This document shows, piece after piece, positions 1 through 18,570 of a stretch of DNA of 64,000 nucleotides (positions are counted from its first letter, which is position 1; every line of letters starts with the position of its first letter). The notes under the pieces are model-generated. The model saw nothing but the letters and a program-made list of their open reading frames with translations, was not told the DNA's origin and did no database searches. A program made the translations under genes and the position numbers. This DNA comes from an uncultured Phycisphaerales bacterium (GTDB lineage Bacteria > Planctomycetota > Phycisphaerae > Sedimentisphaerales > Anaerobacaceae): NCBI GenBank assembly GCA_963718665.1, contig OY970359.1, forward strand, positions 1,952,001-2,016,000. Reading direction: 5' to 3'.

Positions 1-868
1 AACGGCACTCTCGCCATATTCAGCCAATCGCTCACGCCACGATTTTACACAGGCACAGTTGTTCGCCATTTTGACTCTGCGACAGTTTTTTCAAACCGAC
101 TATCGTGGGATTGTACAGTTGCTGGCGGACTTCACGGACTTGAGAGCTGCGATTGGGTTGTCAAAAATTCCTCACTACACTACCCTTCAAAAAGCACAGC
201 AACGTCTGCTAAAAAAAGGGCTTGGGACAAGCTGTTAGCCGCCATTTTCAGTATTGCCAGCCGCGATGGCTTAATCGAGGAACGCCCCGAGGCATCCATT
301 GATTCGACGGGGCTGGAAAGCCGGTTTGTCAGCCGACATTTTCTAATGCGTCAAGGCAAACATACCCAGCAATATCGCCGATGGACAAAACTTACGGTTG
401 TCTGCCACAATGCCAGCCATCTGATTGCTGCCGGCTTGGTCAGCACTGGTCCCAGCAATGATTGTTCCTACCTTATGCCGGCAGTTTCCCAGGCGGTAAC
501 TAATCTGCCTATAGACCGGCTTTTGGGTGATGCAGGATATGACGCAGAAGCCAACCATAAATTCTGTCGTCAGTATCTCGGCATCCGCTCGACGATTATC
601 GCTATCAACAACCGACGAGGTAAAAAAGGCGAGCTTACAGGCCATTACCGAAATCAAATGAAGAATAACTTCCCGAAACGTAAGTTTGGTCAGCGATGGC
701 AAGTTGAGAGTGTTATGTCTCGCATGAAACGTCGTCTTGGCTACGCCCTTCGTAGCCGAACGAATGAATCTCGCAGTACCGAGTGCGTCATGAGAGTTCT
801 GACCTACAACCTGATGCTTCTCTATTTACTTTTCATAAAGAACTTTTAATTAAAGGTTTCTACAAAGC
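1..868 (+). mobile_element. IS5-family-like insertion sequence (5' part outside window), transposase split over two frames
   Basis: Frame 2 (<2-238) reads ...HDFTQAQLFAIL...DYRG...IPHYTTLQKA. Frame 1 continues with DDE motifs IDSTG, GDAGYD and RWQVESVMSRMKR to a stop at 849. Candidate right end GGTTTCTACAAAGC at 855-868. Confidence 0.85.
2..849 (+). CDS. IS5-like DDE transposase, -1 frameshift at A7G (211-218)
   Basis: Two overlapping frames joined at CTA AAA AAA GGG; DDE residues lie in the downstream frame. Confidence 0.8.
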   Translation, partial: GTLAIFSQSLTPRFYTGTVVRHFDSATVFSNRLSWDCTVAGGLHGLESCDWVVKNSSLHYPSKSTATSAKKRAWDKLLAAIFSIASRDGLIEERPEASIDSTGLESRFVSRHFLMRQGKHTQQYRRWTKLTVVCHNASHLIAAGLVSTGPSNDCSYLMPAVSQAVTNLPIDRLLGDAGYDAEANHKFCRQYLGIRSTIIAINNRRGKKGELTGHYRNQMKNNFPKRKFGQRWQVESVMSRMKRRLGYALRSRTNESRSTECVMRVLTYNLMLLYLLFIKNF

Positions 869-884
869 AATATCAATTCTGTAA

Positions 885-960
885 AAAGTCAATAATGGAC
901 ATCTATTGGACAACAAATGGCATATCTTCTATAGTCAAATATGCATTATGCTATATGATG
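885..960 (+). promoter_or_regulatory. AraC-type operator/promoter box, copy 1
   Basis: AAAGTCAATAATGGACATCTATTGGACAACAAATGGCATA is near-identical to 6715 and 10981; followed by a -10-like TATGCT. Confidence 0.7.
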
Positions 961-1017
961 CCATGCCTTAAAGTAGAGCATCGCCTGTATGAAAAATATT
1001 TCGAGGAAAATAATACG

Positions 1018-1335
1018 ATGAAGGTTATAATTTTCATAATATCGTGGTTATTTATTTCATTAAATTTATCGATTCAAGCCGCCCCTATTAATGTCACTTA
1101 TACCATTAAAACCGATACGGGCCAAACTTTCATAAGCAAATATATTTACGGGTCCAACTGGGGCAACGGCACAAATTATACCATTCAAAGAACCGGCGGT
1201 AACCGATGCACCGCTTATAACTGGGAAAACAACTGGTCCAATGCTGGTTCTGACTGGCATTATGAAAACGACCAGTTTTTTGATCCAATTGAAATAGGGC
1301 TTGGCGGCGTCCACCAGGCATACATAGTTTTATAG
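1018..1335 (+). pseudogene. GH44-like endoglucanase/xyloglucanase N-terminal fragment with signal peptide
   Basis: Signal peptide, then ISKYIYGSN...GGNRCTAYNWENNWSNAGSDW (GH44 N-terminal signature). Similarity ends near 1280. Confidence 0.75.
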
Positions 1336-1387
1336 GTAGGTGTTCGTTTAAGGTGATTTAGTTTAAGGTGATTTAGGAGGAAACATA

Positions 1388-4300: not shown

Positions 4301-4480
4301 TATGCTCTGTCAGCCGAGGAAGTAGCTTACCTGGCAACTGATGGTACTGGTACGTTATTAATACCGCTGACCAGCAAAGCCAATCTCAAGAGTTCCGGCA
4401 ATCCGGCAACGGAAATTGTCGACTTCCAGGACTTGGCTGTAATGGGTAATCAGTGGCACACAATCCAATTGTGGCCGTAA
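1388..4480 (+). CDS. Large secreted multidomain protein (FN3-like repeats, CBM-like domain, LamG, dockerin/EF-hand-like motifs)
   Basis: AGGAGG RBS, signal peptide, HDVYFGTS and YYWRVD repeats, IDDFEDY...FDNIRL, ADLDGDCDVDINDL, LamG motifs WNHWAFV and ADFQVYDYALS. Confidence 0.85.
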   Translation: MSRKIVFILALLCFLAISNSAIAAQDNWVGATSSDWFDPTNWGSNVVPTIGDWAAIQPGSFEPIINGDAACSPLDISPWCYGGTGSVDVNSGTCNFGSALNCATWGDFDSSVLGPGILYVHGGTVTTQSDGSAGLVIGSQFGTTTGRVIMYGGLISVPAISLQNGDIALYGGTLECIGDSNFNFSLVRPQNKIDISGGTLQLAGNYLITSPNLPGLIAGKSIVSTRGNIGIPVFDGTNTILVSDSVNMLRPWGPSPDMNSTNVHYRVGDVNVGIMLSWNSGSEPNVINHDVYFGTSTADISAATITSPQFMHEVNEANAEPNQWDVNNFNFKTNTNYYWRVDDNAITSNIYDGSGNIIGSNTTLYKGLVWKFTSHDGKAYNPNPYNGRNGLTEPLALSWTKGDFATSHMVFVGTDSGTVYNASSTTAKVYRSTQTGTSYSLTGLATNWYGPLVPGTTYWWKVTEVNNTTKWGSTGLSGVTVPVLWTFTPTGIITIDDFEDYNSTADVNANWTMGNTIASCYDSAYGMTFSNVIPSGTLSYALDSLGKHGSYYYNAQPFSEVSRFYSGGTIFTGNTNVLSTQPKALRVDYIGASLNAVDPTYNVMYVAIEDTAGHVGVYLNDPSAQLATAWQQWYIPLTDPNFTTNAYPGSVNMAAVSAFHLGFGQRCLFANPGGSAGDGNVMFDNIRLYAATCNPAFAPAADLDGDCDVDINDLSVFAEDWLQKAELRTFATITAPATPVLWYKFDETGTTTSVVDSGKTGGYTGTVVNLATQGWDATDGRKDHNDCLYLPSGGNSYVSCSTSALSFMGDPNHATDGGGITFATWINADLTNPAFINGWVYGFIVVKDVNGNDTVEIACPHHHNNSDWSANNAWAGWAKIAPNDGFSLGPSMPPANYGGRWNHWAFVKAPHTVSWYCNGNLISQEADTDANAGDPNIYGPLFPLPVSAFTIGLGGWGGNWAGRIADFQVYDYALSAEEVAYLATDGTGTLLIPLTSKANLKSSGNPATEIVDFQDLAVMGNQWHTIQLWP

Positions 4481-4514
4481 CAAACGCAACTTGTTAATTA
4501 GTTAGTACTTTCTT

Positions 4515-4559
4515 CGGGGCCTGCAACGCCGAGTTGCGGGGCAGGCCCCGCTTATTTTT
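4515..4559 (+). terminator. Probable rho-independent terminator
   Basis: CGGGGCCTGC...GCAGGCCCCG stem followed by a T-rich tail. Confidence 0.65.
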
Positions 4560-4632
4560 AGGTATGTGTAAATCTTCATTCTTTTGCTGAAGGCACCTTA
4601 TAAAAATGACGCCAAAGCTAAAATGACAGAAT

Positions 4633-4710
4633 CGCGACCGTCTTCGAGTTCCTCACTCCGGCCTTATATGCCGAAAATGGTGGATGTTAAGCAAAAAAAT
4701 GGCGTTCTTT
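4633..4710. repeat. ~75-bp imperfect direct repeat, copy 1 (copy 2 at 6334-6411)
   Basis: Shared core TTATATGCC(G/A)AAAATGGTGGATGTTAAGCAAAAAA. Confidence 0.75.
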
Positions 4711-4876
4711 TTCGTGTCTGCTTCGCTCAAAATATAATGTGTTGTTACATAAAAAAACTGTTTACGTCTATAAAACGCAAAGGGATTGAGCTTTTCTCTA
4801 TGCGCTTTGTGTTTTCTGCCTGCTCTGCGTAGCCATTTGGCGAAACAGGGTGGCCAAAATGGAGCTAAGGATTATT

Positions 4877-5767
4877 ATGAGCAAACGCAATGGGCTTGTC
4901 CACCGCAGCTTGCTTGTGCTCCATAGCAATAACGAAGGAGGAAGCAAAGGTGGATTTACATTAGTTGAACTATTGGTTGTTATCTCCATCATCGCTCTGC
5001 TGATGGCAGTGTTGATGCCTGCGCTGGGCAAAGCGAGAGAACAGGCCAAAATGATCGCCTGCCTTGCAAATCTTAAACAATGGGGTATTATCGCCTATAC
5101 ATACGCTGAAGACAACAACGGCAATTTATGGAGTGGTTCCACCGTACCCGCCGATTATGGATTCTGGTGGCTGGCTCAACTCAGAGAAAAAGACCAGGAC
5201 TGGAAGAGCAACAAAATATGGTTTTGCCCGTCAGCTACGAAACCAATGTTCAATGAAAGCGGCGTATCCACGGGTGCAGTATCTCATTTTAGCGCTTGGG
5301 GTATTGAAACAAAAGCATCTCTTGACCCCACCCTAACCACAGCGCAACTGCCGTTGTTAGGCCAAAACGGAATATCAGGCAGTTATGGCATAAATGGCTA
5401 TGCCTTGAATATGACAACATGGAGCCAAAACTGGAAAACCATAAATGTAAAAGGCGGAGATGTTATCCCGCTTTTTCTGGAAGCTTTGAGATATGACGGA
5501 TGGCCCGTTGAAACAGACGCAGCCGCTCCCGACCCATATACAGCAGTATGGGGCACAGATAGTATGATGGCCAGATATGCAATTAACAGGCACAGAGGAT
5601 ACAACGATGCCGTTTTTATGGACGGCCATGCTAGGAAAGTGGGACTCAAGGAATTGTGGACTTTAAAGTGGAGCCAGACTTTCAATACCGCGGGACCGTG
5701 GACAAAAGCCGGCCATGTCCAGGATTCTTCCTGGCCGGACTGGATAAGAAGTTACCCGGATTATTGA
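4877..5767 (+). CDS. Prepilin-type N-terminal cleavage/methylation protein with H-X9-DG motif (DUF1559-like)
   Basis: [17 protein letters not shown] and C-terminal RHRGYNDAVFMDGH. Confidence 0.9.
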   Translation: MSKRNGLVHRSLLVLHSNNEGGSKGGFTLVELLVVISIIALLMAVLMPALGKAREQAKMIACLANLKQWGIIAYTYAEDNNGNLWSGSTVPADYGFWWLAQLREKDQDWKSNKIWFCPSATKPMFNESGVSTGAVSHFSAWGIETKASLDPTLTTAQLPLLGQNGISGSYGINGYALNMTTWSQNWKTINVKGGDVIPLFLEALRYDGWPVETDAAAPDPYTAVWGTDSMMARYAINRHRGYNDAVFMDGHARKVGLKELWTLKWSQTFNTAGPWTKAGHVQDSSWPDWIRSYPDY

Positions 5768-5848
5768 AATACAATCCGCGTGACCCAATAAGCCTTTGCG
5801 TCTTGTATCTTCGTGGCAAACTTAGGATTATAGTGATTTAGGGTTATT

Positions 5849-6391
5849 ATGAGCAAACGCAACGGGCTTGTCCACCATGGCTTGCCTGTCCTCCATAGCA
5901 ATAGCGAAGGAGGAAGCGAAGGTGGATTTACATTAGTTGAACTATTAGTTGTTATCGCCATCATCGCTCTGCTGATGGCAGTGTTGATGCCCGTGCTGAG
6001 CCGAGCCAGAGAACAGGGAAAACGGGCTGCCTGTCTTTATTATCAGAGGCAATTGACCTCCGCATGGATGATGTACGCTGACGATAACGGCGACAAAATT
6101 GTCTGCGGCGACTCGGAAGAATACGGGGATGCGGATAATCCAGCACCACCACCAGCCAACGATGCTTATAATTCAGCCGGAGACCATTATAGAGACCATG
6201 GGTTAGGAGGAAGCCGTAAAACCATTCTTTTCGTAATTATCGCTTTAATCGCCTCGATTGGGCTCGCCGAATCTTCCGTCCGGCAGCCTGACTCAATGTT
6301 TAAATCTTTCGTATGTCCGCGAGTTTTCAATAACGCGACTCTTTTCAGGTTCTTTACACCCTTATTATATGCCAAAAATGGTGGATGTTAA
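5849..6391 (+). pseudogene. Truncated/chimeric prepilin-type protein (paralog of the 4877 gene)
   Basis: Near-identical 5' ~170 bp; no H-X9-DG motif; the C-terminal third looks like unrelated sequence. Confidence 0.7.
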
Positions 6392-6411
6392 GCAAAAAAC
6401 GGCATTATTTT
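6334..6411. repeat. ~75-bp imperfect direct repeat, copy 2
   Basis: Aligns with 4633-4710; the minus strand reads TTAACA-N16-TATAAT. Confidence 0.75.
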
Positions 6412-6714
6412 TTGAACGTAACTGGTGTATAATATGATATATTATCTCAAGTAATGATATAATCTTAGGACAACGCTTAAAAAAAATAATGTTTCGTCTC
6501 GACTCTTTTAATTATTTGGCGTCAGTAAAAGCTGAAGTCATCTTCTAATTCAAAGTTAAATCCGTCTCATTCTTGATGAAGACATATACCTGTGTCGTCC
6601 AAGGTCAAGAACCAACTCGTGCAAATCGGCCATTTCCGTGAGTTGACCGAGCACTTTTTTGCTCTCTTCAATGTCTATCCCCCTTGTTGGCTTGACCTTT
6701 ATGAAATCTTTGGC

Positions 6715-6790
6715 AAAGTCAATAATAGACATCTATTGGGCAACAAATGGCATATCTTCTATAGTCAAATTGTGTTATACTATATAATAC
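6715..6790 (+). promoter_or_regulatory. AraC-type operator/promoter box, copy 2
   Basis: 56 bp nearly identical to 885-940, then TATACT/TATAAT -10 candidates. Confidence 0.7.
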
Positions 6791-6842
6791 TATGACATTC
6801 ACATGTGTCTTTCGGGTGGGCTAGTTTTTTGGAGTTTTGGTG

Positions 6843-9455
6843 ATGAAGTCGAAGATAAGATTTATTGCGATTAACATTTTTGTGGTTTTTTGTTCGGCCC
6901 TGCCGGTATATGCCGCTGATTTGACGGTCAGTGTTGATGCCTCATCGTATATCCGGGCTATTCCGGAGACGATGTATGGAACAAACATGCAATGCTGGGA
7001 CGGCGCTCAAAACGGCGGAAATGACAATGTCAATACGCTGATAGCGGCGGCGGGCAATAGATACGTGCGCTGGCCAGGTGGCTCCTGGGGAGACGGGGAC
7101 CTTTGGAGCGATATGGAAGGCCCGAATTATTCAAACACATGGATAGTTAGCTATGGCCAATCGATGTATAGAATGAATAAGTTTGACTCCATTATGCAGC
7201 CGATAGTTAATTTCTCGGGTATCTGGAGTGACTCTACAGGGACTGACGTTAACCATTGGGAAGCCGGCGCAATCAGTGCCGCGGCCGCCTGGGTCACTGA
7301 CCAAAGTTCAAGAACCAATTGCGCCCGTTACTGGGAAATCGGCAATGAGCAGGGAGGCCCATGGGAATATGGATATTTTCCGCAAATCAGCGGAACATAT
7401 TACGGCAGCAGATACACTCATATGTATAACGCGATGAAGGCGATTAATCCGCGAATCAAACTTGGAGCAGACTGCGACCCCTGCGACACACCACAACCAT
7501 GGGGGTGGTATGTAGGAATATGGACACGTGATATGTTAAACATAATGGAGGCAAATGGCATTCAGCCTGATTTTCTCATTATCCATTCATATCCAGGCGA
7601 TACCAGCAATACGACATTATTAGGCCCCGATGTTGTGTATATTTCCGATGTTACAAACACTTTGAATAATACAATTTCGACTTCAATAGGCCCTCAATAT
7701 GTAGGCAAAATAAAATACTGGATGACGGAATGGGACGCCGGAAGCCCAAGCACTTATAATAGAGATATGTCTTATGTAAGCGCGTTATTCAAAGCACAGT
7801 ATATTCTGGAGATGTGCAAATACGGCTGGGAAGGTTCCAATCCATGGAGCCAGTATCAGTATCATTATAATGAAACTGGTTATCAGAATTTTCAACCGTA
7901 TCCGAAATGGTATATCTCTCCTATGCTGAGTTATTATTTCGGCAGGGACATGGTGACAGCTACATCCAGCGATTATTATGTCAGGGCATACGCAAGCAGA
8001 GATGACGCTAATAATCTGACTATTGTTATGGCAAATAATTATCCGAGCACCGACAGAACGGTGCATATTAACATATCCGGTTTCGGTGCAGGAACGACAG
8101 GCGGACAATGGCTAATTCAACCCGCAGGTTCAATGATTCCAGGTGGAGTAAATATCCAGGATTATAACGACCTGATGATAAATGGAGTGGTGAATCCAAG
8201 TCCGTCAACCGTGCCGTCATTAAGCAGCGTCGCTGTCACTACAGGTGATTCATTTGATATCAGTTTGCCGAGAAGCAGTATGCTAATTATTAAAATTCCG
8301 CCAGCTAACCAGACACAGCAATTGCCGTATGGCGGGACTGCATGGCCTATTCCGGGGACAATTGAGGCGGAAAATTATGACACAGGGGGCAAATTTGTTG
8401 CCTATTACGATACAACTGTGGGGAACAGCGGTGGTCAATACCGTTCGGATGATGTGGACATCGAGACGTGCAGCGATGGCGGTTATGATGTTACCGGTAT
8501 CAAGACCGGCGAGTGGCTGAAATATTCCGTCAATGTAAATTCCAGCGGCTTATATCAAATTGCAGCCTGGGTCGCTTCGGTGGATTCCAACCAGCAATTC
8601 AGAATCGAATTCGACGGCAAAGATGAGACAGGCCCTGTGCTTTTCGCTTCGACAGGCGGGGCACAGATATTCAGCAGTGTCGATGTTAACGTATTTCTTA
8701 AAAAAGGCCCGCATACTATGCGGCTGTTGATGGACACGAATGACTGGAGCATCGATAAGCTCACATTTACGAAATTCGGCAATGGCACCGGCCTGGCTCT
8801 TCGCGAGGTTTGGTTAAACATATCAGGCGGAGCAGTCAGCAATCTGACATCAAATGTGAATTACCCATGGGATCCTAACAGCAGATTTTTGGAGCATAGT
8901 TTTGAGGGGCCTACAAACTGGACGACGGGCAGCTCCAATTCAAATTTGGACAATTACGGGACACACATACGGGGATATCTCAATCCCATAACCACCGGCA
9001 GTTACACATTCTGGATTGCTGCCGATGATGCTGCGGAATTGTGGTTGAGCACGGATACCGACCCGAATCACAAAAGCAAAATTGCCTATACAACGAGCTG
9101 GACAAATGATTACCGGTGGAATGAGTACTCGTCGCAGCAATCATCGCCGATTTCGCTTGTCGCCGGCCGAAGCTACTATATCGAAGCATTGCACAAGGAA
9201 AATACCGGTGGTGACAATATCGCGGTTGCCTGGCAGGGGCCGGGTATAATACAACAGGCCATCTCAGGTGCTTATTTGACTCCGTATGTTATTGATTTTG
9301 TGGATTTTGGTAATTTTGCGACCCAGTGGTTGAAAACCGGCTGCACCTCAGCCAACGGCTGGTGCAGCGGCGCAGATTTGGACCATGACGGCAACGTCCA
9401 GCTCGATGACCTTATGCAGTTTGTCGCGAACTGGTGGCTTTACGGCGGCGAGTAA
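6843..9455 (+). CDS. Secreted clan GH-A-like glycoside hydrolase with CBM6-like, PA14 and dockerin-like domains
   Basis: RWPGGSWGD, YWEIGNE (acid/base) and WMTEW (nucleophile); IEAENYD (CBM6-like); YTFWIAADDAAELWLS (PA14); ADLDHDGNVQLDDL. Confidence 0.85.
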   Translation: MKSKIRFIAINIFVVFCSALPVYAADLTVSVDASSYIRAIPETMYGTNMQCWDGAQNGGNDNVNTLIAAAGNRYVRWPGGSWGDGDLWSDMEGPNYSNTWIVSYGQSMYRMNKFDSIMQPIVNFSGIWSDSTGTDVNHWEAGAISAAAAWVTDQSSRTNCARYWEIGNEQGGPWEYGYFPQISGTYYGSRYTHMYNAMKAINPRIKLGADCDPCDTPQPWGWYVGIWTRDMLNIMEANGIQPDFLIIHSYPGDTSNTTLLGPDVVYISDVTNTLNNTISTSIGPQYVGKIKYWMTEWDAGSPSTYNRDMSYVSALFKAQYILEMCKYGWEGSNPWSQYQYHYNETGYQNFQPYPKWYISPMLSYYFGRDMVTATSSDYYVRAYASRDDANNLTIVMANNYPSTDRTVHINISGFGAGTTGGQWLIQPAGSMIPGGVNIQDYNDLMINGVVNPSPSTVPSLSSVAVTTGDSFDISLPRSSMLIIKIPPANQTQQLPYGGTAWPIPGTIEAENYDTGGKFVAYYDTTVGNSGGQYRSDDVDIETCSDGGYDVTGIKTGEWLKYSVNVNSSGLYQIAAWVASVDSNQQFRIEFDGKDETGPVLFASTGGAQIFSSVDVNVFLKKGPHTMRLLMDTNDWSIDKLTFTKFGNGTGLALREVWLNISGGAVSNLTSNVNYPWDPNSRFLEHSFEGPTNWTTGSSNSNLDNYGTHIRGYLNPITTGSYTFWIAADDAAELWLSTDTDPNHKSKIAYTTSWTNDYRWNEYSSQQSSPISLVAGRSYYIEALHKENTGGDNIAVAWQGPGIIQQAISGAYLTPYVIDFVDFGNFATQWLKTGCTSANGWCSGADLDHDGNVQLDDLMQFVANWWLYGGE

Positions 9456-9482
9456 GCAAAGATAAGTTGATTGCAAATATAG

Positions 9483-9517
9483 GGGCCACAAATTATTTTG
9501 TGGTCCTTTTTTATTTT
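9483..9517 (+). terminator. Rho-independent terminator
   Basis: GGGCCACAAA/TTTGTGGTCC stem followed by a T run. Confidence 0.7.
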
Positions 9518-9603
9518 GGCGATTATTCGTGGCGGAGGGATTCGATCTGATTCAGTTCTTTTTCGTTGTAGTAGTAGTTATATATCTCGTCTCGTGTGGA
9601 TTT

Positions 9604-10002
9604 GCTATAATAGTTATAAACAAAAATATGGATAATGCCATAAACGGGACATTTAATATAACAAGCTCACATAGTTTCTCTTCAGGAAGAGTATTCACGT
9701 TCGATGCCAACAGTTCCAATATCAGCGAAATTACACCGATAAGTAATATTACAGGCAATTCATTTACTTATACTATTCCCAAAACGACTGTTTGTCATAT
9801 TGTGCTGGATGGCCACTGTCAGTTAAATTATGACCTTACAGGAGATTGCCGAGTTGATATGCTGGACCTCGTTATATTAGTAAATCAGTGGCTTGGAGGC
9901 GACTGTTCGGCTGATCCCCATTGTGCTGATTTCAATGGCGATTTGAATGTTGATTTTACTGATTTTGCATTATTCAGTCAGGAATGGCGGATTAATGAAT
10001 AA
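9604..10002 (+). pseudogene. C-terminal beta-sandwich plus dockerin-like fragment of a glycoside hydrolase (GH44-like)
   Basis: IIVINKN...NSFTYTIPKTTVCHIVL, then DLTGDCRVDMLDL and DFNGDLNVDFTDF; no credible start or catalytic domain. Confidence 0.6.
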
Positions 10003-10022
10003 TTAAGTTTAATGGCAAAAAT

Positions 10023-10061
10023 AAAAGCGTCTGCTTCGATAACGGGGCGGACGCTTTTTTT
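10023..10061. terminator. Bidirectional terminator
   Basis: AAAAGCGTCTGCTTCG/CGGGGCGGACGCTTTT stem with A/T tails between convergent genes. Confidence 0.75.
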
Positions 10062-10098
10062 ACTGCTTAAGATTTTAAATTTGCAACCTCCATATTTT

Positions 10099-10968
10099 TT
10101 AACGTAAGCGTTTAAAGGTGCCGGGGGGTATACCAAAAATCCGTTTGAATACTCTGGAAAAATTGAAAGGATCGCTGAAACCGAATTCCTGCGCCACTTC
10201 CTTTACCGATGAATCTGGTGATTGAAGCCGCTGTGCCGCGAGATTCATTTTCATTCGCATCAGATATTGATATGGGCTTTGGTTGTCGAATCTTTTGAAG
10301 AGTCTGCAAAGATAGGCATTATCTATATTACATTCTTCGGCAATCTTATCGAGGCTTCGAAGCGTAAGGCAATTCTTCTGTATTATTTCTCTGGATTTTT
10401 GATAAGTGTAAAAAGCAGCAGACTTTCGTGTATTTTCAATTATAGAAGTTTCGGTGATTTTAAAAATGAGCTGCTGCAAAATGGCCGTGCATAAAAGGGG
10501 AGTATAAGAACTGCCATTTTGCCCATTTTTTATGAGATCTTCAAAAATTATTATTATCGCATCAGGCGCAGATACCTGAACAGCGCTTCCCAAAGCAGGA
10601 CCGAATTTTCGCAGCATTTTTAAAGCTTCGGGCCCGGTAAAATCGACGAAATATTTGACCAGAGGAAATTCAGTTTCATTTGTAATTATATGAGCTATAC
10701 CCGGGCCGTAAGAAAATACTTTTCCGGCAAAAAGTGTATATTTTTTATCATCAAGAACAACTGCGCCTCTTCCACTTGCCACAAATTCAATGGAATAAAA
10801 AGGGAAATTAGAACGATCGATTCGATACCCGGGCTGACAATGTTCCCGGCCGCCGCATATGACCTTAAGTTTTTGATTTTTTTGAGATTGGGTATCTAGA
10901 TAAAAACGATTTGCCTCCAGAACCTGGTTGGAAAAAAAGTCCGGCTTTCTTTTATCAACAGGAACCAT
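10099..10968 (-). CDS. AraC-family transcriptional regulator
   Basis: Cupin-like N-terminus; C-terminal SVKEVAQEFGFSDPFNFSRVFKRIFGIPP HTH. Confidence 0.95.
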   Translation of the reverse strand: MVPVDKRKPDFFSNQVLEANRFYLDTQSQKNQKLKVICGGREHCQPGYRIDRSNFPFYSIEFVASGRGAVVLDDKKYTLFAGKVFSYGPGIAHIITNETEFPLVKYFVDFTGPEALKMLRKFGPALGSAVQVSAPDAIIIIFEDLIKNGQNGSSYTPLLCTAILQQLIFKITETSIIENTRKSAAFYTYQKSREIIQKNCLTLRSLDKIAEECNIDNAYLCRLFKRFDNQSPYQYLMRMKMNLAAQRLQSPDSSVKEVAQEFGFSDPFNFSRVFKRIFGIPPGTFKRLR

Positions 10969-10980
10969 AAATAATCCATA

Positions 10981-11056
10981 AAAGTCAATAATAGATATCT
11001 ATTGGACAACAATTGGCATATAATGCAATCATATATGCATTATACTAAATATGATG
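10981..11056 (+). promoter_or_regulatory. AraC-type operator/promoter box, copy 3 (divergent araC/operon region)
   Basis: AAAGTCAATAATAGATATCTATTGGACAACAATTGGCATA, then TATACT; begins 12 bp from the araC start. Confidence 0.7.
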
Positions 11057-11175
11057 AGAAAATCAAGAGTCAATAAGATACAGGTATTAATTCCCGATTC
11101 TGAAGTCATTTATTGAGCGGGGTAAAAGAGAGGATAATAACGGCAAAGAAGAACAATTCGGTAGCGGTTTCATGT

Positions 11176-12183
11176 ATGAAAGAGGATGATTTAATTGTCA
11201 TTACAGGGGCCGGTGGATTTATCGCCGGGGCATTAGCGAGATATTTCCGCAAACAGGGCTTTACCCGCATCCGCGCGATAGACAAAAAGCCGCTGCCGCA
11301 ATGGTACCAGCGAACCGAAGGCGTAGAATGCCTCTGCATGGACCTGAGTAATGAGGAAAATTGCCGCAGGGTCTGCCAGGATGCCGTCGAAGTTTACAAT
11401 CTTGCTGCGGACATGGGTGGAATGGGATTCATCGAGCGATTCAGGATAGAATGCCTGCGAAGCATATTAATCAATACACATATGATAGAGTCAGCTTACA
11501 GGGCCGGCGCCCGGAGGTATTTCTTCTCATCTTCAGCCTGCGCTTATAACATCGAGCTGCAGAAAGATAAAAATTCCCGCGCATTAAAAGAATCCGATGC
11601 TTACCCGGCAATGGCTGAGCGGGGATATGGATGGGAGAAACTTATGTCTGAGATGTTCTGCCAGGAATATTATGCGGAAAGAGGATTAGAGACGCATATC
11701 GCGAGGTTCCATAACGTTTATGGTCCATACGGAACATGGGCCGGTGGACGTGAAAAGGCCCCAGCTGCAATTTGCCGTAAAGTCATCGAGGCCAAAGCTA
11801 AAAATTCCAACGAAATCGTTATATGGGGCGACGGAAATCAGACGCGCAGCTTCATGTATATCAATGATTGCGTTAAAGGCATCGATATGATTATGCACTG
11901 CGATAAACTTATAGCTACTCCAGTCAATCTCGGGTCAGACCGGCTTGTTTCAATTAATGACCTGGTTTCAATAGTTGAGTGCATCGGCGGTATCACATTG
12001 AAACGCAAATATGATTTGAATGCCCCAAAGGGTGTTGCCGGACGAAACAGCGACAATACCTTTATTAAAAAAATTCTAAATTGGGAACCCGATACCACAC
12101 TTGAAGATGGATTGAAAAAAACATATGAATGGATTGGACAGCAATATCAGGACCGCAAAGCCGGCAAACAAACGGTAAATTGA
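11176..12183 (+). CDS. GDP-mannose 3,5-epimerase-like NAD-dependent epimerase (start may be upstream)
   Basis: TGAGGFI, LAADMGGMGFI, SSACAY, YGWEK and GGREKAPAAICRK are GME-type motifs. Confidence 0.85.
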   Translation: MKEDDLIVITGAGGFIAGALARYFRKQGFTRIRAIDKKPLPQWYQRTEGVECLCMDLSNEENCRRVCQDAVEVYNLAADMGGMGFIERFRIECLRSILINTHMIESAYRAGARRYFFSSSACAYNIELQKDKNSRALKESDAYPAMAERGYGWEKLMSEMFCQEYYAERGLETHIARFHNVYGPYGTWAGGREKAPAAICRKVIEAKAKNSNEIVIWGDGNQTRSFMYINDCVKGIDMIMHCDKLIATPVNLGSDRLVSINDLVSIVECIGGITLKRKYDLNAPKGVAGRNSDNTFIKKILNWEPDTTLEDGLKKTYEWIGQQYQDRKAGKQTVN

Positions 12184-12187
12184 ATAT

Positions 12188-12985
12188 ATGACGAAAAATA
12201 ATCGACTTATTGAAGATGTAATTGGAAAACTTCCATACAGGCTCGCTCTCGCCGGTGGATGGATTGATCAGCCTTTTGTCTCAATGCGTAATCCTTCGCC
12301 TCCCGGTTCGATGGTAGTTATCAGCGTCGAGCCGCAATTCAGGTTTATAGAGCGGGCCGGCATTTGCAGCAGCACACGTAAGATCGCTTTTAAATTGTGG
12401 AAAGATGGTCTGCCGTTGGGGAATCCTGAAGAGCTTGTTCAAAAACTTTATATGGAGGAGAATAAAGGTAAAGCCAAGCCATCGGGTTCTCAGGATATGA
12501 TTGGCATAATCCATCCCGGAATTAATAGACTGGATTATGATTTCACTTATCGTAAAGGTGTTTTTCCACGCTATATCGAACCATGTAATGATCCCCAAAT
12601 AGCCGGTTGGCTTGAAAAAGTAATTCATATTCTGCCGGTAGCCCCCAGGCCAGAAGGATACAATCCGCTGGAAACAAAAAACCTGTCTCCTGAATGGATT
12701 TCACGTCTCGGAAAGTCAGGCAGGAATTGTTTTGAGGCTATTATCGCCAAAGATGTCGATGCGCTGGGAGCATCGATGAATGAATGTATGTCTTGTTGGG
12801 GAAAAATTTTGCCGGGCACGGTGCGTCATCATAAATTAAATGAGGATTTACTTCCTTTGCTCGAATATTACCGTTCAAATTATCCAGGCGCTATGTATCC
12901 AGGCTGCGGCGGCGGTTATTTATTTGTCGCATCCCGAAAACCTGTCCCCGGCGCTTTCCATATTAAAATTAGAATTAAATCCTGA
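12188..12985 (+). CDS. Divergent GHMP-superfamily sugar kinase
   Basis: PYRLALAGGWIDQ, RAGICSS, SGSQD and GCGGGY. Confidence 0.7.
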   Translation: MTKNNRLIEDVIGKLPYRLALAGGWIDQPFVSMRNPSPPGSMVVISVEPQFRFIERAGICSSTRKIAFKLWKDGLPLGNPEELVQKLYMEENKGKAKPSGSQDMIGIIHPGINRLDYDFTYRKGVFPRYIEPCNDPQIAGWLEKVIHILPVAPRPEGYNPLETKNLSPEWISRLGKSGRNCFEAIIAKDVDALGASMNECMSCWGKILPGTVRHHKLNEDLLPLLEYYRSNYPGAMYPGCGGGYLFVASRKPVPGAFHIKIRIKS

Positions 12986-12993
12986 GTTTCATT

Positions 12994-13383
12994 ATGAAGA
13001 CATTCAAAAGATTCTGCAAATATGTCAGACTTAAAGATGACCCGAAACTTATTGAAGAATATAAAAAACTTCATTCTAAGGGGGCAGGTTGGCCTGAAAT
13101 TACAGAAGGGATGAAGCAAGTCGGTATCATCGATATGGAAATCTATATCGCCGGGACAAATCTTTTTATGATTATGGATACCAGGGTGGACTTCGACCAT
13201 GAAAAAGCAATGGCTCAATTAGCGAAATTGCCAAGACAGTCCGAATGGGAAGCATTGATTTCAAAATATCAAGAAACAAATCACGATGCGACGGCTGGTG
13301 AAAAATGGCGAGTGCTTGAACGAATATTCAAAATGGGCAAAAAAACGAATATGATCCTGAAGACGGCTACATTGAACAGATAG
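12994..13383 (+). CDS. L-rhamnose/L-fucose mutarotase family (DUF718-like)
   Basis: LKDDPKLIEEYKKLH...WPEI...MEIY...LFMIM...EWE. Confidence 0.85.
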   Translation: MKTFKRFCKYVRLKDDPKLIEEYKKLHSKGAGWPEITEGMKQVGIIDMEIYIAGTNLFMIMDTRVDFDHEKAMAQLAKLPRQSEWEALISKYQETNHDATAGEKWRVLERIFKMGKKTNMILKTATLNR

Positions 13384-13420
13384 AGATATGATTTAATCAG
13401 GAATTTTTTGGAGAGATTAC

Positions 13421-15889
13421 ATGAAAATCTGGCAAATAGTTTTATTAACATCAATTTCATCCATCCTTTTGTCAATTAATTTATCCTGTCAGCAAAACAA
13501 TAAAACAAGTCCACAACAAATTCAATCTTTTGAAATGAATTTGGCTGCCAGGCAGGTTTTAAATTTCAATAAGGACTGGAAATTCTCAAGAGGCGATATG
13601 GATGAAGCAGAAGCTGTAACTTTTAATGATTCGAACTGGCAGCCGGTGCGATTGCCGCACGATTGGGCAATTACCGGGCCATTCAATGAAAAAGTTGAGG
13701 GCTCTACTGGCAAACTGCCGTGGGCGGGCGTCGGCTGGTATCGCAAAACATTTACTCTCGATAAAGCTGATAAAGGCAAACGAGTTTATTTCGATTTCGA
13801 TGGCGTAATGGCATTTCCGAAGGTTTATGTCAATGGCCAGTTAGCGGGTCAATGGGATTACGGATATATGTCATTTAGAGTCGATGCCACGCCCTTTGTT
13901 AAATTCGGTGAAAAAAATATTATAGCTGTAAAAGCAGATACCCGTAAGCATGGCTCACGCTGGTATCCCGGCGCAGGCATTTATCGAAAGGTTGTGATGA
14001 CAATAACAGAGCCTGTGCATATCGCTCATTGGGGAACTGATATAACTACACCTAAAGTCACTGATGATTCCGCAACAATTAATGTTTGCAGCACTATTGA
14101 AAATCACAATAAATCAAATTCGAATATAGCTATTGATGTTGCCTTGATTGACCCCGATGGGAAAATAATTGCCTCTCAAACAAAAAATGGAAAAATTCCA
14201 GCCAACGGCTCACGGGATATAAATCAAATTTTTGTTGTTCCAAATCCGCAACGATGGGATATCACAAGTCCGAAACTTTACACAGCTAAAACAATCGTGC
14301 GTATGGGTGATAAGATTATTGATAATGATACAACAACATTCGGTATTCGTGAATTCAAATTTACCGCCAATGATGGTTTTCATCTTAATGGCAGGCGAGT
14401 CCAGCTTCAGGGAGTATGTCTGCATCATGACCAGGGTGCTCTCGGAGCCGCATTCAATACACGTGCAATGGAAAGACAACTTGAGATTATGCGTGATATG
14501 GGCGTAAACGCTGTTAGAACAAGTCATAATCCGCCCGCACCAGAAATGCTTGAGCTTTGCGATAAGATGGGCTTTATTGTCTGGGATGAGGTTTTTGATA
14601 AATGGGACAGGACTGCCGACAGAGTTGACGATAAACCTCCTTTTGTGGAATATGGCGAAAAGCAGGTGAAAAATTTTGTTTTGCGCGACCGCAACCATCC
14701 CTGCGTTGTCGTCTGGTCAATCGGTAACGAAATTCCCAGGGATAAACAAGGAGTTAATCCCGAACGTGTAGAAATGATGGCGGACTATTTCCGTAAATAC
14801 GACCTGACAAGACCTGTCAGTTTGGCTTCCAATGATGACAAGGATGCTTCAAATCATATTTACGACGGCCTCGATATAGGCGGCTTTAATTACCACCGCA
14901 GCTATGGGGCCTTTCGTAAAATGTATCCGGATAGACCAATAATTTACAGCGAATCCGCATCGGCTGTCAGCTCAAGAGGTTATTATGACTTCCCGCTTCA
15001 AAAGAATAAAACAGAGTTGACAAAAAATGTATATCAGGTCAGTTCTTATGACCGAACCTCCAGATGGTGCGATATACCGGATGTCGAATTCAATTACCTG
15101 GATACAGATAAATATGTCAGCGGCGAATTTGTCTGGACTGGATTCGATTATCTCGGCGAGCCTGAACCTTTCATGAAAGAGTCAAGAAGCTCTTATTTCG
15201 GCATTGTGGATTTGACAGGTATTCCCAAAGACCGCTACTATTTATATCGCAGCCGCTGGGCGCCCGATAAGACTACCGTCCACATCCTACCTCACTGGAA
15301 CTGGCCGGACCGAATCGGGCAAAATGTCCCCGTTTATATTTACACCAATGGCGATACCGCAGAACTTTTCCTTAATGGCCGGTCCTTAGGCAAGAAGACA
15401 AAAGAAAAGGAGGCCGGGCCTGGTTATTATGGTGTGATAGACAAATACCGTATTTGCTTCAACGATGTAAATTATGAACCCGGTGTACTTAAGGCGGTTA
15501 CCTATAAAGACGGCAAAGAAATCGGTCAAGCTATTATGAAAACAGCCGGCGAACCTGCGTCGCTTCGAATGACTCCCGATAGAAAAGAACTTGCTGCGAC
15601 AGGCGATGACCTTTGCTATCTACTAATTGAAGCAATCGATGCTAACGGCACGCTTTGTCCTTTGGCGGATAACCTGGTTAAGTTCAGAGTTGAAGGCCCT
15701 GCCGAAATTGCAGGTGCCGATAACGGTAATCCCCGTTCATTTGAATTGTTCCAGGACGCTGAACATAAATTATTCTTTGGTAAAGAAACTTTAATTATCC
15801 GTCCCGCAGAAGGACAGGGAGGCATTATAAAAATTATTGCCGAAAGTGACGGCCTGACGCCAGCTGAAGCTACTGTTTTGAGCAAATAG
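13421..15889 (+). CDS. GH2 beta-galactosidase-like, probable lipoprotein
   Basis: LPHDWAI, RWYPGAGIYR, RTSHNP, WSIGNE and FVWTGFDYLGEP; LSC lipobox-like motif. Confidence 0.92.
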   Translation: MKIWQIVLLTSISSILLSINLSCQQNNKTSPQQIQSFEMNLAARQVLNFNKDWKFSRGDMDEAEAVTFNDSNWQPVRLPHDWAITGPFNEKVEGSTGKLPWAGVGWYRKTFTLDKADKGKRVYFDFDGVMAFPKVYVNGQLAGQWDYGYMSFRVDATPFVKFGEKNIIAVKADTRKHGSRWYPGAGIYRKVVMTITEPVHIAHWGTDITTPKVTDDSATINVCSTIENHNKSNSNIAIDVALIDPDGKIIASQTKNGKIPANGSRDINQIFVVPNPQRWDITSPKLYTAKTIVRMGDKIIDNDTTTFGIREFKFTANDGFHLNGRRVQLQGVCLHHDQGALGAAFNTRAMERQLEIMRDMGVNAVRTSHNPPAPEMLELCDKMGFIVWDEVFDKWDRTADRVDDKPPFVEYGEKQVKNFVLRDRNHPCVVVWSIGNEIPRDKQGVNPERVEMMADYFRKYDLTRPVSLASNDDKDASNHIYDGLDIGGFNYHRSYGAFRKMYPDRPIIYSESASAVSSRGYYDFPLQKNKTELTKNVYQVSSYDRTSRWCDIPDVEFNYLDTDKYVSGEFVWTGFDYLGEPEPFMKESRSSYFGIVDLTGIPKDRYYLYRSRWAPDKTTVHILPHWNWPDRIGQNVPVYIYTNGDTAELFLNGRSLGKKTKEKEAGPGYYGVIDKYRICFNDVNYEPGVLKAVTYKDGKEIGQAIMKTAGEPASLRMTPDRKELAATGDDLCYLLIEAIDANGTLCPLADNLVKFRVEGPAEIAGADNGNPRSFELFQDAEHKLFFGKETLIIRPAEGQGGIIKIIAESDGLTPAEATVLSK

Positions 15890-15910
15890 CCGAATATTTA
15901 AGGAGTATTT

Positions 15911-16063
15911 ATGAAAAAATATGGCTTTACTCTTATAGAATTACTGGTCGTCATTGCAATCATTGGCCTATTGATGGCTATTTTATTGCCAAAGACATTT
16001 AAAAAAGACATCTATTCATTTACAGGGCAAAAGAAAATATTACTCGTTTTAAGGATGATATGA
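15911..16063 (+). CDS. 50-aa prepilin stub (N-terminal methylation segment only)
   Basis: [35 protein letters not shown]; the stop overlaps the GH29 start (ATGA). Not in the ORF track. Confidence 0.65.
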   Translation: MKKYGFTLIELLVVIAIIGLLMAILLPKTFKKDIYSFTGQKKILLVLRMI

Positions 16064-17595
16064 AAATGACAAATTTCCAAAAATGCACAATTGTCTCTTT
16101 AATTTTGTCTATTACACTTACATACGGCTGCTCAAAAGAAACTCAAAAGCCAGCTGCACAAAATGTAAAGCAGTTTAAAACGGATTATACAGCGGATTGG
16201 AATTCCCTTAAACAGCGAAATCCGGTGCCTGACTGGTTCCGTAATGAAAAATTCGGCATCTATTTTCACTGGGGCGTTTATTCCGTGCCTGCCTTTGAGA
16301 ACGAATGGTATCCGAGAAATATGTATGACATCAATTCGCCGGCATACAATCACCATATCAAAAACTGGGGAAAACCAGATGTATTTGGCTATCCCGATTT
16401 TGTGCCGATGTTTAAAGCAGAGAAATTTGACGCAAATGAATGGGCGGATTTATTCGTTAAGGCTGGAGCGAGATTTGCCGGCCCGGTGGCAGAGCATCAC
16501 GACGGTTTTTCCATGTGGGCAAGCAAGCTGACGCCATGGAACGCACAGGATATGGGGCCGCATCGCGACATCGTAGGCGAGCTTGAAAAGGCAATCCGCA
16601 AAAAAGGGATGCGATTTATTACCACTTTCCATCACGAGCGTAACGGCCTTTATGAAATCACAAAAGGCGGCAAGACATACTGGACGGGCCATTACGAATT
16701 CGTAAAGAAAAACTTTCCTGAGTTGCTCAACGACCCCTGCAGGGCGATTATGTATGGCTATATGCCAGCGGACAAATATTACCAGATGTGGAAAGACAAG
16801 CTCATCGAGGTCATAGACCATTATCATCCCGACTTGATGTATTTCGATGCTTGGCTCGGAGAAATTCCCGATAAATACAAAATGCCCTATCTGGCGCATT
16901 ATTTCAACGACGCCGGCAATCTCGGCAAAGAAGTCGTCGTAACATACAAAGGAGCTGATCTGCCTAATAAAGTAGGTATCCTTGACTATGAAAAAGGCCG
17001 GGCGGACAAGCTCACCAATTTCGTCTGGCTGACCGACGATACGATTTCGTATGGGTCGTGGTGTTATACGAATGACTTGAAGATAAAGAAGCCATCGGTG
17101 ATTATCAGAACGATGATTGATATTGTCAGCAAAAACGGCCAGTTGCTGCTCAATATCTCTCCTATGGCCGATGGAACGATTCCCGATAATCAAAAACAGT
17201 TGCTGCTGGCGATTGGGGACTGGATGAAAAAATATGGGGAGGCGATTTACGATACAAGGCCGTTTGTTGATTACGGCGAAGGGCCTACAAAGATGCTGTC
17301 CTCAGGCAGTTTCGTAAAAATGCAAAGTGGATACAACGACAATGATATTCGCTATACCCGAAAAAACGATATAGTTTATGCGATGACACTGGGCCAGCCA
17401 AATGCAGGCAGCGAAGTGAAGATGACGATTTTTGGCAAGGAAGGAAAAGCGGCAAATATTAAGGTTAATAAGATTACGATGCTTGGCACAAAGCAAAAGA
17501 TTAAATGGCAAAGAACAGATGAAGGACTGATTTTGAAAATGCCCGCCGATGGAAATGAAATTGCAAACGTATTTAAATTAACAATCGAAAAGTAA
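16060..17595 (+). CDS. GH29 alpha-L-fucosidase-like, probable lipoprotein
   Basis: KFGIYFHWGVYSVP, AEHHDGF, MYFD and DIVSKNGQLLLN. Confidence 0.93.
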   Translation: MKMTNFQKCTIVSLILSITLTYGCSKETQKPAAQNVKQFKTDYTADWNSLKQRNPVPDWFRNEKFGIYFHWGVYSVPAFENEWYPRNMYDINSPAYNHHIKNWGKPDVFGYPDFVPMFKAEKFDANEWADLFVKAGARFAGPVAEHHDGFSMWASKLTPWNAQDMGPHRDIVGELEKAIRKKGMRFITTFHHERNGLYEITKGGKTYWTGHYEFVKKNFPELLNDPCRAIMYGYMPADKYYQMWKDKLIEVIDHYHPDLMYFDAWLGEIPDKYKMPYLAHYFNDAGNLGKEVVVTYKGADLPNKVGILDYEKGRADKLTNFVWLTDDTISYGSWCYTNDLKIKKPSVIIRTMIDIVSKNGQLLLNISPMADGTIPDNQKQLLLAIGDWMKKYGEAIYDTRPFVDYGEGPTKMLSSGSFVKMQSGYNDNDIRYTRKNDIVYAMTLGQPNAGSEVKMTIFGKEGKAANIKVNKITMLGTKQKIKWQRTDEGLILKMPADGNEIANVFKLTIEK

Positions 17596-17617
17596 CTTAA
17601 ATTACGAAACGGCAGCC

Positions 17618-17990
17618 GGCGCAGTCAGCGACCTGACCTCGAATGCTAACTATCCTGATAATCCGACCGGCCAGGCCGAAATCACCAGTATGGAAGGACC
17701 TGCCAACTTCGCTGACTCTTATGGTCCGCGCCTTATCGGCTACATCCATCCATCAGCAACCGGCTCATACACCTTCTGGATCGCCGGTGATGATGCAACC
17801 GAACTGTGGCTTAGCACCGATGACAATCCGGCAAATGCCGTGAAAATCGGGTATAACACTCAGGCCGTTAGCCCACGCAACTGGGACCAGTCCGCAAGTC
17901 AGGAGTCGACGCCGAGAATGCTTGTTGGCGGCCAGAGATACTTCATTATGGCCCTGCACAAGGAAGTGCTACGTCAGCGACCATATCGCC
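17618..17990 (+). pseudogene. PA14 domain fragment
   Basis: GAVSDLTSNANYPDNP...YTFWIAGDDATELWLSTD...ALHKE, paralogous to the PA14 of the 6843 gene; no signal peptide; frameshift near 17966. Confidence 0.7.
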
Positions 17991-18216
17991 AATCGTCACT
18001 TCCTCAACTCACGCAATTCTAAGCACTTACGTAATTCTCGTAAAAAATTAACGGAGAGGGCGGGATTATAACCGCCCTCTTTTGAAATACCGAGCATTCG
18101 ATCCCTTTCTCCTTTTTTAATCTGAAAAAATACACGAAATACTCCCGCGGGGGACATATGACATCATGAATGTGACGTAAGTTATTACCAATAAAAGAAT
18201 TGAGGAAAGGTCAAAA

Positions 18217-18570
18217 TGGAGGCGGGGGGATTCGAACCCCCGTCCCGATATGCTTCGAGACGAGCGTACTACACACTTAGTCGTATTTATTTTTTATCGC
18301 CTCCGCGACAGGCAAACGACGGCCAATCGCTTCGGCTATTCCGGAATTTGTCTTAGCCCGCCGGCCCGAAAGCTCCGACGAGAGCAGCCCACTTCTTTAC
18401 GCCCGAATCAGGCCCGCAGGCGCAACCTGAAAGGACGGGTCGCCTATTTAGGCGGCCATTTGCAACTGGTAGTTGCCAATTAAATTTAGTGCCGGGTGAT
18501 TTACCAGGCCAACCGGCGTCCTGGGTATGCAGCTCGACTCTCCGACATCCGGTCGAAACCGTTCGCCCCC
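18217..18570 (-). ncRNA. ssrA: tmRNA; tag (A)GNYQLQMAA* at 18477-18448
   Basis: 5' GGGGGCG and 3' CGCCTCC-A acceptor stem with a G3.U pair, GGTTCGAATCC T-loop, GGTTTCGAC near the 5' end, 354 nt. Confidence 0.95.

Follow-up and report, generated by a model that had tools for sequence, protein, structure and literature searches.

A putative nucleotide-sugar route for L-galactose, built on a fucokinase-like kinase and a GDP-mannose 3,5-epimerase, in an uncultured Phycisphaerales bacterium

What does a GME-type epimerase (GME, GDP-mannose 3,5-epimerase) do at the head of an operon that goes on to encode a sugar kinase, an L-sugar mutarotase and two secreted glycosidases? The question arises at positions 10,099 to 17,595 of a 64,000-nucleotide stretch of DNA (hereafter the window; contig OY970359.1, C1:1952001-2016000) from the 2.61-Mb genome of an uncultured Phycisphaerales bacterium (completeness 94.6%), whose closest relative among the fetched loci is a Sedimentisphaerales metagenome-assembled genome (MAG). 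An earlier note on this DNA had placed six genes here, with the GME-like gene first in an operon divergent from araC, and had read them as an L-galactose counterpart of the Leloir pathway. All six open reading frames (ORFs) are present, and a Pfam scan supports the AraC, NAD-dependent epimerase, RhaM, GH2 and GH29 assignments. Gene content, protein families, conserved residues and genomic linkage make it probable, in our judgment, that the operon serves a Leloir-like, pyrophosphorylase-type nucleotide-sugar route running from L-galactose (L-Gal) via L-Gal-1-P, GDP-L-Gal and GDP-D-mannose (GDP-D-Man) to Man-1-P; from the same evidence we infer which substrates are used, that GTP is consumed, which way the flux runs and that AraC regulates the operon. 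The features concerned are as follows.

10099..10968, minus strand: AraC-family regulator (PF12833, PF02311), divergent from the operon, with an orthologue in 28 of 80 related loci
11113..12183, plus strand: GME-type short-chain dehydrogenase/reductase (SDR), with a Pfam match to NAD-dependent epimerases and GME structures as top PDB matches (E 3e-79)
12188..12985, plus strand: minimal fucokinase-like GHMP kinase of 265 aa, of the GME-linked clade (profile, fold and conserved residues)
12994..13383, plus strand: RhaM-family L-sugar mutarotase (PF05336, E 3.6e-27)
13421..15889, plus strand: secreted GH2 enzyme, probable beta-galactosidase of the GalB type, accessory (NF041463, PDB matches)
16060..17595, plus strand: secreted GH29 enzyme of the BpGH29-like subgroup, candidate alpha-L-galactosidase/fucosidase (PDB matches, residues)
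18217..18570, minus strand: transfer-messenger RNA (tmRNA) gene (ARAGORN), its 3' end forming the right boundary of the probable operon-bearing island

The plus-strand genes are separated by 4, 8, 37 and 170 bp and the divergent araC and GME genes by 144 bp, the true start of the GME ORF possibly lying a few codons downstream of 11113. The five top PDB matches of its product are all GDP-mannose 3,5-epimerases (E about 1e-78), with 1e-22 for the SDR that ranks next. PMC8787198 gives the active site of Arabidopsis GME as S143, C145, Y174, K178, N203, K217, R243 (the diphosphate-binding Arg) and R306, and distinguishes GME from GDP-fucose synthase by Lys as the base and Arg as the acidifier of Cys. 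The window epimerase matches all eight residues with S141, C143, Y172, K176, N201, K215, R245 and R311, and none of them varies among 90 kinase-linked copies: S141/Y172/K176 form the triad, C143 and K215 the acid/base pair, R311 is the Cys-acidifier, R245 the diphosphate ligand and N201 the conserved Asn. A GDP-L-fucose synthase (Fcl/GMER) identity was rejected on the presence of Lys215 and Arg311 and on a score of 107 bits against the NF047922 cut-off of 500; an Fcl-like gene closer to that family stands beside gmd elsewhere in the source genome. GalE likewise failed, at 62 bits against 262. The protein is thus predicted to be a GME-type enzyme and to interconvert GDP-Man and GDP-L-Gal. Kinase-linked GMEs cluster on one 92-row branch (support 94) that includes a single unlinked row and shows some clade-specific residues. 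Across 301 Planctomycetota genomes, a GME-like gene occurs in 28; of these, the GME-clade kinase is also present in only two, the source genome and G203, whose GME copies are 74-78% identical.

The kinase, which the earlier note had called atypical, indeed gives nothing significant in single-sequence searches of Pfam, NCBIfam and PDB, its placement coming only from profile and fold. A 29-sequence profile finds the FKP fucokinase domain as best match (E 1.2e-14), with heptose kinases next, and the predicted model (predicted local distance difference test score 92) matches GHMP kinases with Z scores of 15-22, the top match being WcbL (Z 22.1), with 9IIP, the FKP kinase with fucose-1-P bound, at Z 20.1. 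GHMP hallmarks are present as catalytic R18 and D103 and the Gly-rich motif III G239-G243, and R18, W25, D27, Q28, Q102 and D103 are invariant across 159 tabulated rows. By profile, modelled fold and residues, the protein is a GHMP-superfamily kinase. Five of the six FKP residues R592, W599, D601, T602, Q761 and D762 are kept (no counterpart of E751 was found), among them those reading C2-C4 of L-fucose. The substrates of FKP are confined to L-fucose, C5/C6 analogues of it, D-arabinose and L-galactose, and the enzyme converts L-Gal to GDP-L-Gal in vitro, with a Km of 3345 μM versus 34 μM for fucose (PMC11982464). The retained residues predict anomeric phosphorylation of sugars in the L-galacto configuration and are silent on the hydroxyl at C6. 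A residue discriminating L-Gal from L-Fuc was sought among the clade-specific columns (20, 44, 204, 208, 236 and others), which can be placed against the sugar only with coordinates, and none was assigned. We also discarded a bifunctional FKP-type identity (no fused PF07959; NF009948 11.4 bits versus 721). Of 7,987 candidates, 7,518 are homologues, and the family spans at least that many sequence clusters, nearly all unnamed; the apparent GME-kinase fusions P0138, P0140, P0145, P0155 and P0156 resemble frameshifted read-throughs, and we left them unused.

How general the pairing of epimerase and kinase is was read from gene neighbourhoods. Linkage was counted over the best 80 of 541 GTDB loci, while a second sample held the best 80 of 579 metagenome loci, distant transferase-kinase fusions; both are top matches of two queries rather than a census, and related loci in them are not independent. 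GME is present in 63 of the 80 GTDB loci and a tandem HIGH nucleotidyltransferase gene in 57, both together in 44, followed by araC (28), GH29 (17), ManC (9) and RhaM (6). The linkage of GME to the kinase is far beyond chance, the two standing no more than 400 bp apart in 60 of the 80 (56 for the HIGH gene). GME-linked loci span six named phyla, and 14 of the 17 genomes whose locus has no GME carry a GME-like gene elsewhere, nine of these at 73-79% identity. Phylogenetic analysis of 161 kinase domains, with L122 left out for length, resolves a GME side of 120 rows (Shimodaira-Hasegawa-like approximate likelihood ratio test 99) that includes all 95 GME-adjacent rows; ManC accompanies 17 of these 120, GH29 34, RhaM 14, AraC 29 and LacI 23, and GMD, FucI and RmlA none. 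Among the remaining 41 rows, GMD accompanies 5, FucI and RmlA 7 each, and a single GME occurs, unlinked. Of the 120 GME-side loci, 77 show a marker for a glycosidase, a transporter, a mutarotase or a regulator. The co-occurrence that the earlier note had proposed to check holds for GME and for the transferase, the usual third gene; the mutarotase is accessory and outside the core module (14 of 120 loci). Three individual loci serve as examples: L002 runs LacI, GME, kinase, transferase, ManC, phosphomannomutase (PMM); L078 also encodes ManC and PMM; and L093 runs LacI, FucP, RhaM, GME, fused transferase-kinase, ManC, GH29. In loci of the 41-row clade, among L085-L164, transferase-kinase fusions have gmd, fucI, fucU, fucP, rmlA or wzx as neighbours and are never GME-adjacent, and such a fusion is likely an FKP-independent L-fucose salvage enzyme. 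The GMD-kinase fusion family P0157 (31 members, one of them a named Prevotella) belongs to this fucose-linked clade. Separately, a NUDIX hydrolase follows the transferase in L045 (6305-6937) and an HD-domain protein the kinase in L056 (4139-5620), both possible alternative exits from GDP-mannose.

No nucleotidyltransferase is found among the ORFs of the window operon, as the earlier note had observed. Its suggestion that kinase homologues are elsewhere fused to a HIGH-type nucleotidyltransferase proved accurate: among 34 longer homologues, 25 contain the HIGH domain (PF01467), nine of these with RhaM as well, one (P0124) is fused to an FKP-type pyrophosphorylase, and one family to GDP-mannose dehydratase. 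The source genome itself has a second operon, GH27-GME-kinase-tandem HIGH transferase, at C1:2320360-2324625 (L081 10358-14626, minus strand), with a complete core, genes 77% and 64% identical to their window counterparts and a GC content equal to the genome average. In relatives such as L003 the gene order is kinase-transferase-mutarotase, so the window operon, in which kinase and mutarotase lie only 8 bp apart, looks to have lost its transferase cleanly; the genome of L001 (kinase 94% identical) has the same two-operon layout. The transferase (P0308, C1:2320360-2321181) scores 57.3 bits against the TIGR00125 cut-off of 27.7, placing it in the HIGH cytidylyltransferase-like superfamily, and comprises two HIGH folds, the invariant HSGH standing only in the second and absent from the first; the tandem resembles human ECT (TM 0.76-0.78). 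Its nearest families are RfaE domain II (ATP) and the glycerol-3-P or ethanolamine-P cytidylyltransferases. Neither an RfaE/HldC heptose-1-P adenylyltransferase (73.8 versus the TIGR02199 cut-off of 181.5) nor TagD (50.1 versus the TIGR01518 cut-off of 165.4) describes it. About 4 kb from the second operon, on the opposite strand, lies a galactokinase-like GHMP gene, and L081 7100-8661 holds a pair resembling a cyclic oligonucleotide-based antiphage signalling system (CBASS), made up of a nucleotidyltransferase (NF053871 172.6 bits, below the cut-off of 350) and a membrane protein that had no NCBIfam match.

The secreted enzymes indicate which sugar may be supplied. Among solved structures, the window GH29 comes closest to the Bacteroides plebeius exo-alpha-L-galactosidase entries 7SNK/7LJJ/7LNP (E about 1e-102), which bears out, at the level of resemblance, the earlier suggestion of a tie to L-galactose. 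H70, E82, V143, D326 and W334 align with BpGH29 H68, E80, V141, D327 (which fixes O6) and W335, as named in PMC9774334, and the O6 Asp is found in 34 of 34 scorable GH29s of GME-clade loci (the position was not covered in two more) versus 0 of 3 in fucose-clade loci. An alpha-L-glucosidase of the ClAgl29 kind, which needs Asp114, Asp139 and Phe195, is rejected in view of H70, E82 and V143. We regard the enzyme as a candidate alpha-L-galactosidase/fucosidase. The GH2 enzyme scores 902.7 bits against the NF041463 cut-off of 900, its PDB matches are GH2 beta-galactosidases, and it is accessory, occurring in 2 of 80 related loci. GH29 L-galactosidases are reported to alternate with a GH2 beta-galactosidase (preprint 10.64898/2026.05.19.726164), and the GH2-GH29 pair fits such alternating action. 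We claim no link to an agar locus through 5T98, the top GH2 PDB match, which goes unnamed in the main text of PMC5849685. The mutarotase reaches 95.1 bits with PF05336 (cut-off 23.4) and 19.7 with the L-rhamnose equivalog (below its cut-off of 99.6), matches an L-fucose mutarotase and RhaU weakly, and occupies the spot where transferase plus mutarotase stand in relatives. Its last approximately 14 residues (13339-13400), beyond the RhaM domain, are frame-shifted after an A run; the tail seen in L003 lies in the next frame, and L001 has a shifted tail like that of the window. Elsewhere, in L082 (372-10075), a GH29 paralogue (74%) and an ABC sugar importer are divergently arranged, together with a GH2 gene and ribulokinase-like and ribulose-5-P 4-epimerase-like genes, all named by resemblance.

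Taken together, the route would proceed as follows. GH29, helped by GH2, would free alpha-L-Gal from a glycan outside the cytoplasm, a carrier encoded outside the window operon would import it, and the RhaM protein would supply the beta-anomer, which the kinase would convert to beta-L-Gal-1-P. The tandem HIGH transferase, acting in trans from the second operon, at C1:2320360-2323036, would join this with GTP to GDP-L-Gal, and GME would epimerize the latter to GDP-D-mannose in its favoured direction, the reported equilibrium of 80:15:5 being on the side of GDP-Man (PMC6678494). ManC running backwards would release Man-1-P and return GTP, after which PMM and phosphomannose isomerase (PMI) would lead to fructose-6-P; part of the GDP-mannose may enter biosynthesis, and AraC would regulate the operon. 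The source genome encodes ManC (C1:2215231), PMM (C1:2159480) and a PMI domain (C1:2586604), all unlinked to the operon. The earlier reading of the locus as an L-galactose route of Leloir type is supported as a whole by the GME-kinase linkage, the transferase available in trans, the fucokinase-like kinase, the GH29 resemblance and the ManC exit in part of the GME-clade loci.

Several observations weigh against this route. The window operon has no transporter gene among its ORFs, ManC is linked in only the 17 of 120 GME-clade loci and not in the source genome, and the characterised bacterial GME is assigned to lipopolysaccharide (LPS) synthesis, its gene lying among glycosyltransferase genes (PMC6678494). 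FKP T602 is replaced by Q in the kinase, whose sugar residues are identical in the GME and fucose clades and therefore do not discriminate L-Gal from L-Fuc. The fungal alpha-fucosidase 4NI3 shares the GH29 O6 Asp, and we therefore rejected this residue as diagnostic of an alpha-L-galactosidase and treat it as permissive only; L001, the nearest relative, has a different GH29 type at the same place, which the GH29 query did not retrieve. All solved relatives of the HIGH transferase use CTP or ATP, and a HIGH homologue was not found in 12 of the 20 genomes whose locus is without a transferase. An FKP-type GTP pyrophosphorylase is present in 11 of those 12 genomes versus 11 of 31 others, a hint that it stands in where the HIGH enzyme is absent, and only a hint because the 12 are mostly two related groups (of Phycisphaerae, sampled as incomplete MAGs). 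Use of GTP by the HIGH transferase is suggested by context, namely linkage to ManC, the FKP-domain fusion and the FKP-type gene in genomes where no HIGH enzyme was found; PF07959, the FKP-type domain, was not found in the source genome at its 94.6% completeness. One further genome, with an FKP-type gene, also carries a HIGH transferase homologue with an internal TAG (G306:C1:897947-898393, L189).

Four other explanations deserve comparison with the catabolic one. The module could supply an L-Gal or L-gulose (L-Gul) glycan, kinase and transferase salvaging L-Gal and ManC with GME making GDP-L-Gal de novo, by the logic of Bacteroides fkp plus gmd/fcl. ManC followed by GME is the normal biosynthetic order, the glycosyltransferase setting of the characterised enzyme agrees with it, and the sister kinase clade is found in gmd, rmlA and wzx loci. 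Yet any of five glycan-biosynthesis markers occurs in just 1 of the 120 GME-clade loci, as opposed to the 77 with catabolic or regulatory markers (the five-marker set is small, and unlinked glycosyltransferases are possible), only 3 of 92 scanned close-clade neighbours are glycosyltransferases, and the GME equilibrium points the other way; we hold this explanation to be unlikely. We think it similarly unlikely that the same chemistry serves another sugar, be it L-fucose (giving GDP-L-Fuc and GDP-D-rhamnose), L-gulose, D-altrose, D-arabinose or a methylated L-Gal. The shared kinase residues speak for it, as do the L-fucose/L-rhamnose families GH29, RhaM, FucU and FucP, and the source genome has Gmd/Fcl and no FKP was found in it, so kinase and transferase could also serve fucose salvage there. 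Against it, FucI and GMD are absent from all 120 GME-clade loci, no obvious link leads from GDP-D-rhamnose to ManC or PMM, the GH29 type changes together with the kinase clade, and the fucokinase-type site reads L-galacto at C2-C4, which disfavours L-gulose.

A carrier other than GDP, with the HIGH enzyme making ADP- or CDP-L-Gal and the epimerase changed in nucleotide specificity, would suit the ATP- and CTP-using families nearest to the transferase and the separate GME branch with its clade-specific residues; HldE moreover activates a beta-hexose-1-P with ATP (PMC10948575). This seems improbable to us, as ManC is co-encoded in GME-clade loci and the FKP-type GTP pyrophosphorylase is either fused to the kinase or present where the HIGH enzyme is missing. 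Moreover, K223, W238 and Q243, presumably GDP-binding, and R245 are common to the window epimerase, plant GME and 18 GME-like proteins unlinked to a kinase. Finally, the module might function elsewhere and the window copy be a duplicate in decay whose glycosidases are all that it contributes: its transferase is lost, a transposase sits in the tmRNA island, the mutarotase tail is frame-shifted and a complete paralogous operon exists in the same genome. All window ORFs are nonetheless intact with catalytic residues kept, L001 repeats the two-operon layout, and the Pro at position 238 in motif III of the kinase is also Pro in FKP, which makes decay the least probable of the four and very unlikely. 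The catabolic L-galactose route hence remains our preferred explanation.

A 22-bp copy of the tmRNA 3' end lies at C1:1950643, 19.6 kb upstream, and with these two flanks the operon (GC 42.5% versus 49.2% genome-wide) is probably carried on an integrated 19.6-kb tmRNA island. The island, window 1-18238 plus about 1.4 kb upstream, has low GC and encodes a DDE transposase (346-849), large secreted proteins, two prepilin-type N-methylation genes (4850-6391) and, immediately before the tmRNA boundary, a PA14-domain gene remnant (17600-18022). At 6837-9455 on the plus strand it encodes a secreted 872-aa protein that combines CBM6 and PA14 domains with an N-terminal domain resembling clan GH-A (GH39/51/79 look-alikes in the Atlas, no single family fitting); this protein may set the target glycan. 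Elsewhere, at G000:C1:55108-57139 (L231), a gene distantly resembling L-fucose isomerase (135.9 bits, cut-off 775) stands with LacI, FucU and an ABC sugar importer, a possible second L-sugar route of the source genome. A promoter scan was uninformative (22 sites found versus 22.2 expected), comparison with plasmids gave no match, and RNA runs contained only 5-9% of the words, in the form of short contigs from relatives, and we draw no conclusion on expression or habitat from them.

If correct, these assignments would place beside the known oxidative routes for L-galactose, which occurs in algal and plant glycans, one that is redox-neutral; they would also show GME in a catabolic role and give a function to the unnamed kinase family. 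The HIGH superfamily might gain a GTP-using member, and, because FKP binds L-Gal about 100-fold more weakly than fucose, an L-Gal-preferring kinase would be a useful tool for GDP-L-Gal production. On a broader scale, we put at about even the chance that this is a third L-galactose catabolic route in anaerobe-rich phyla, with the vitamin C epimerase run backwards, a HIGH-fold guanylyltransferase and a net cost of one ATP because ManC recycles GTP and pyrophosphate, and that, in fucose-catabolic and capsule loci, the sister kinase-transferase clade provides L-fucose salvage independent of FKP, a system so far unrecognised.

How, then, does the module compare with known systems? In the Leloir pathway D-galactose is processed by GalM, GalK, GalT or a pyrophosphorylase, and GalE. 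Mutarotase, anomeric GHMP kinase, nucleotide activation, SDR epimerase and exit as a common hexose-1-P recur here, whereas the proposed substrate is an L-sugar, the mutarotase of RhaM type and the kinase fucokinase-like, a HIGH-fold transferase takes the place of GalT, a 3,5-epimerase that of the 4-epimerase, and GDP and mannose those of UDP and glucose. The Leloir pathway proper is excluded, the operon having no GalT-like gene and an epimerase of GME type. E. coli mutants use L-Gal through the fucose isomerase route. Oxidative L-galactose catabolism, described for Luteolibacter LG18 with a Phocaeicola vulgatus route cited, shares the proposed substrate and differs in using dehydrogenases via L-galactonate and D-tagaturonate, with no anomeric kinase or nucleotide sugar, GDP going unmentioned in PMC12632266. 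Bacteroides fragilis FKP (PMC11982464) shares the kinase fold and R592, W599, D601, Q761 and D762, while the window kinase is a 265-aa stand-alone protein of about 20% structural identity, has a HIGH partner in place of the FKP pyrophosphorylase and is coupled to GME. Plant and Methylacidiphilum GMEs (PMC8787198, PMC6678494) have all eight active-site residues and described roles in ascorbate, cell wall, LPS and antibiotic synthesis, unlike the sugar uptake and hydrolysis context found here. The heptose enzymes HldE/HldC and WcbL/HddA resemble the module in a HIGH transferase acting on a beta-sugar-1-P and in WcbL as top kinase fold match, but scores fall far under the family cut-offs, the kinase motif is FKP-like and no heptose/LPS genes were seen in the scanned GME-clade loci. 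B. plebeius BpGH29 (PDB 7LJJ, 7LK7, 7LNP, 7SNK) is the best solved relative, with five residues conserved, although the window operon is without porphyranase or sulfatase and the GH29 subgroup includes fungal fucosidases. Our literature search found no description of a kinase-transferase-GME module, subscription journals being thinly covered, so that this is no proof of absence. The module is real, conserved and apparently undescribed; it would work like the Leloir and fucose-salvage routes and is a member of neither.

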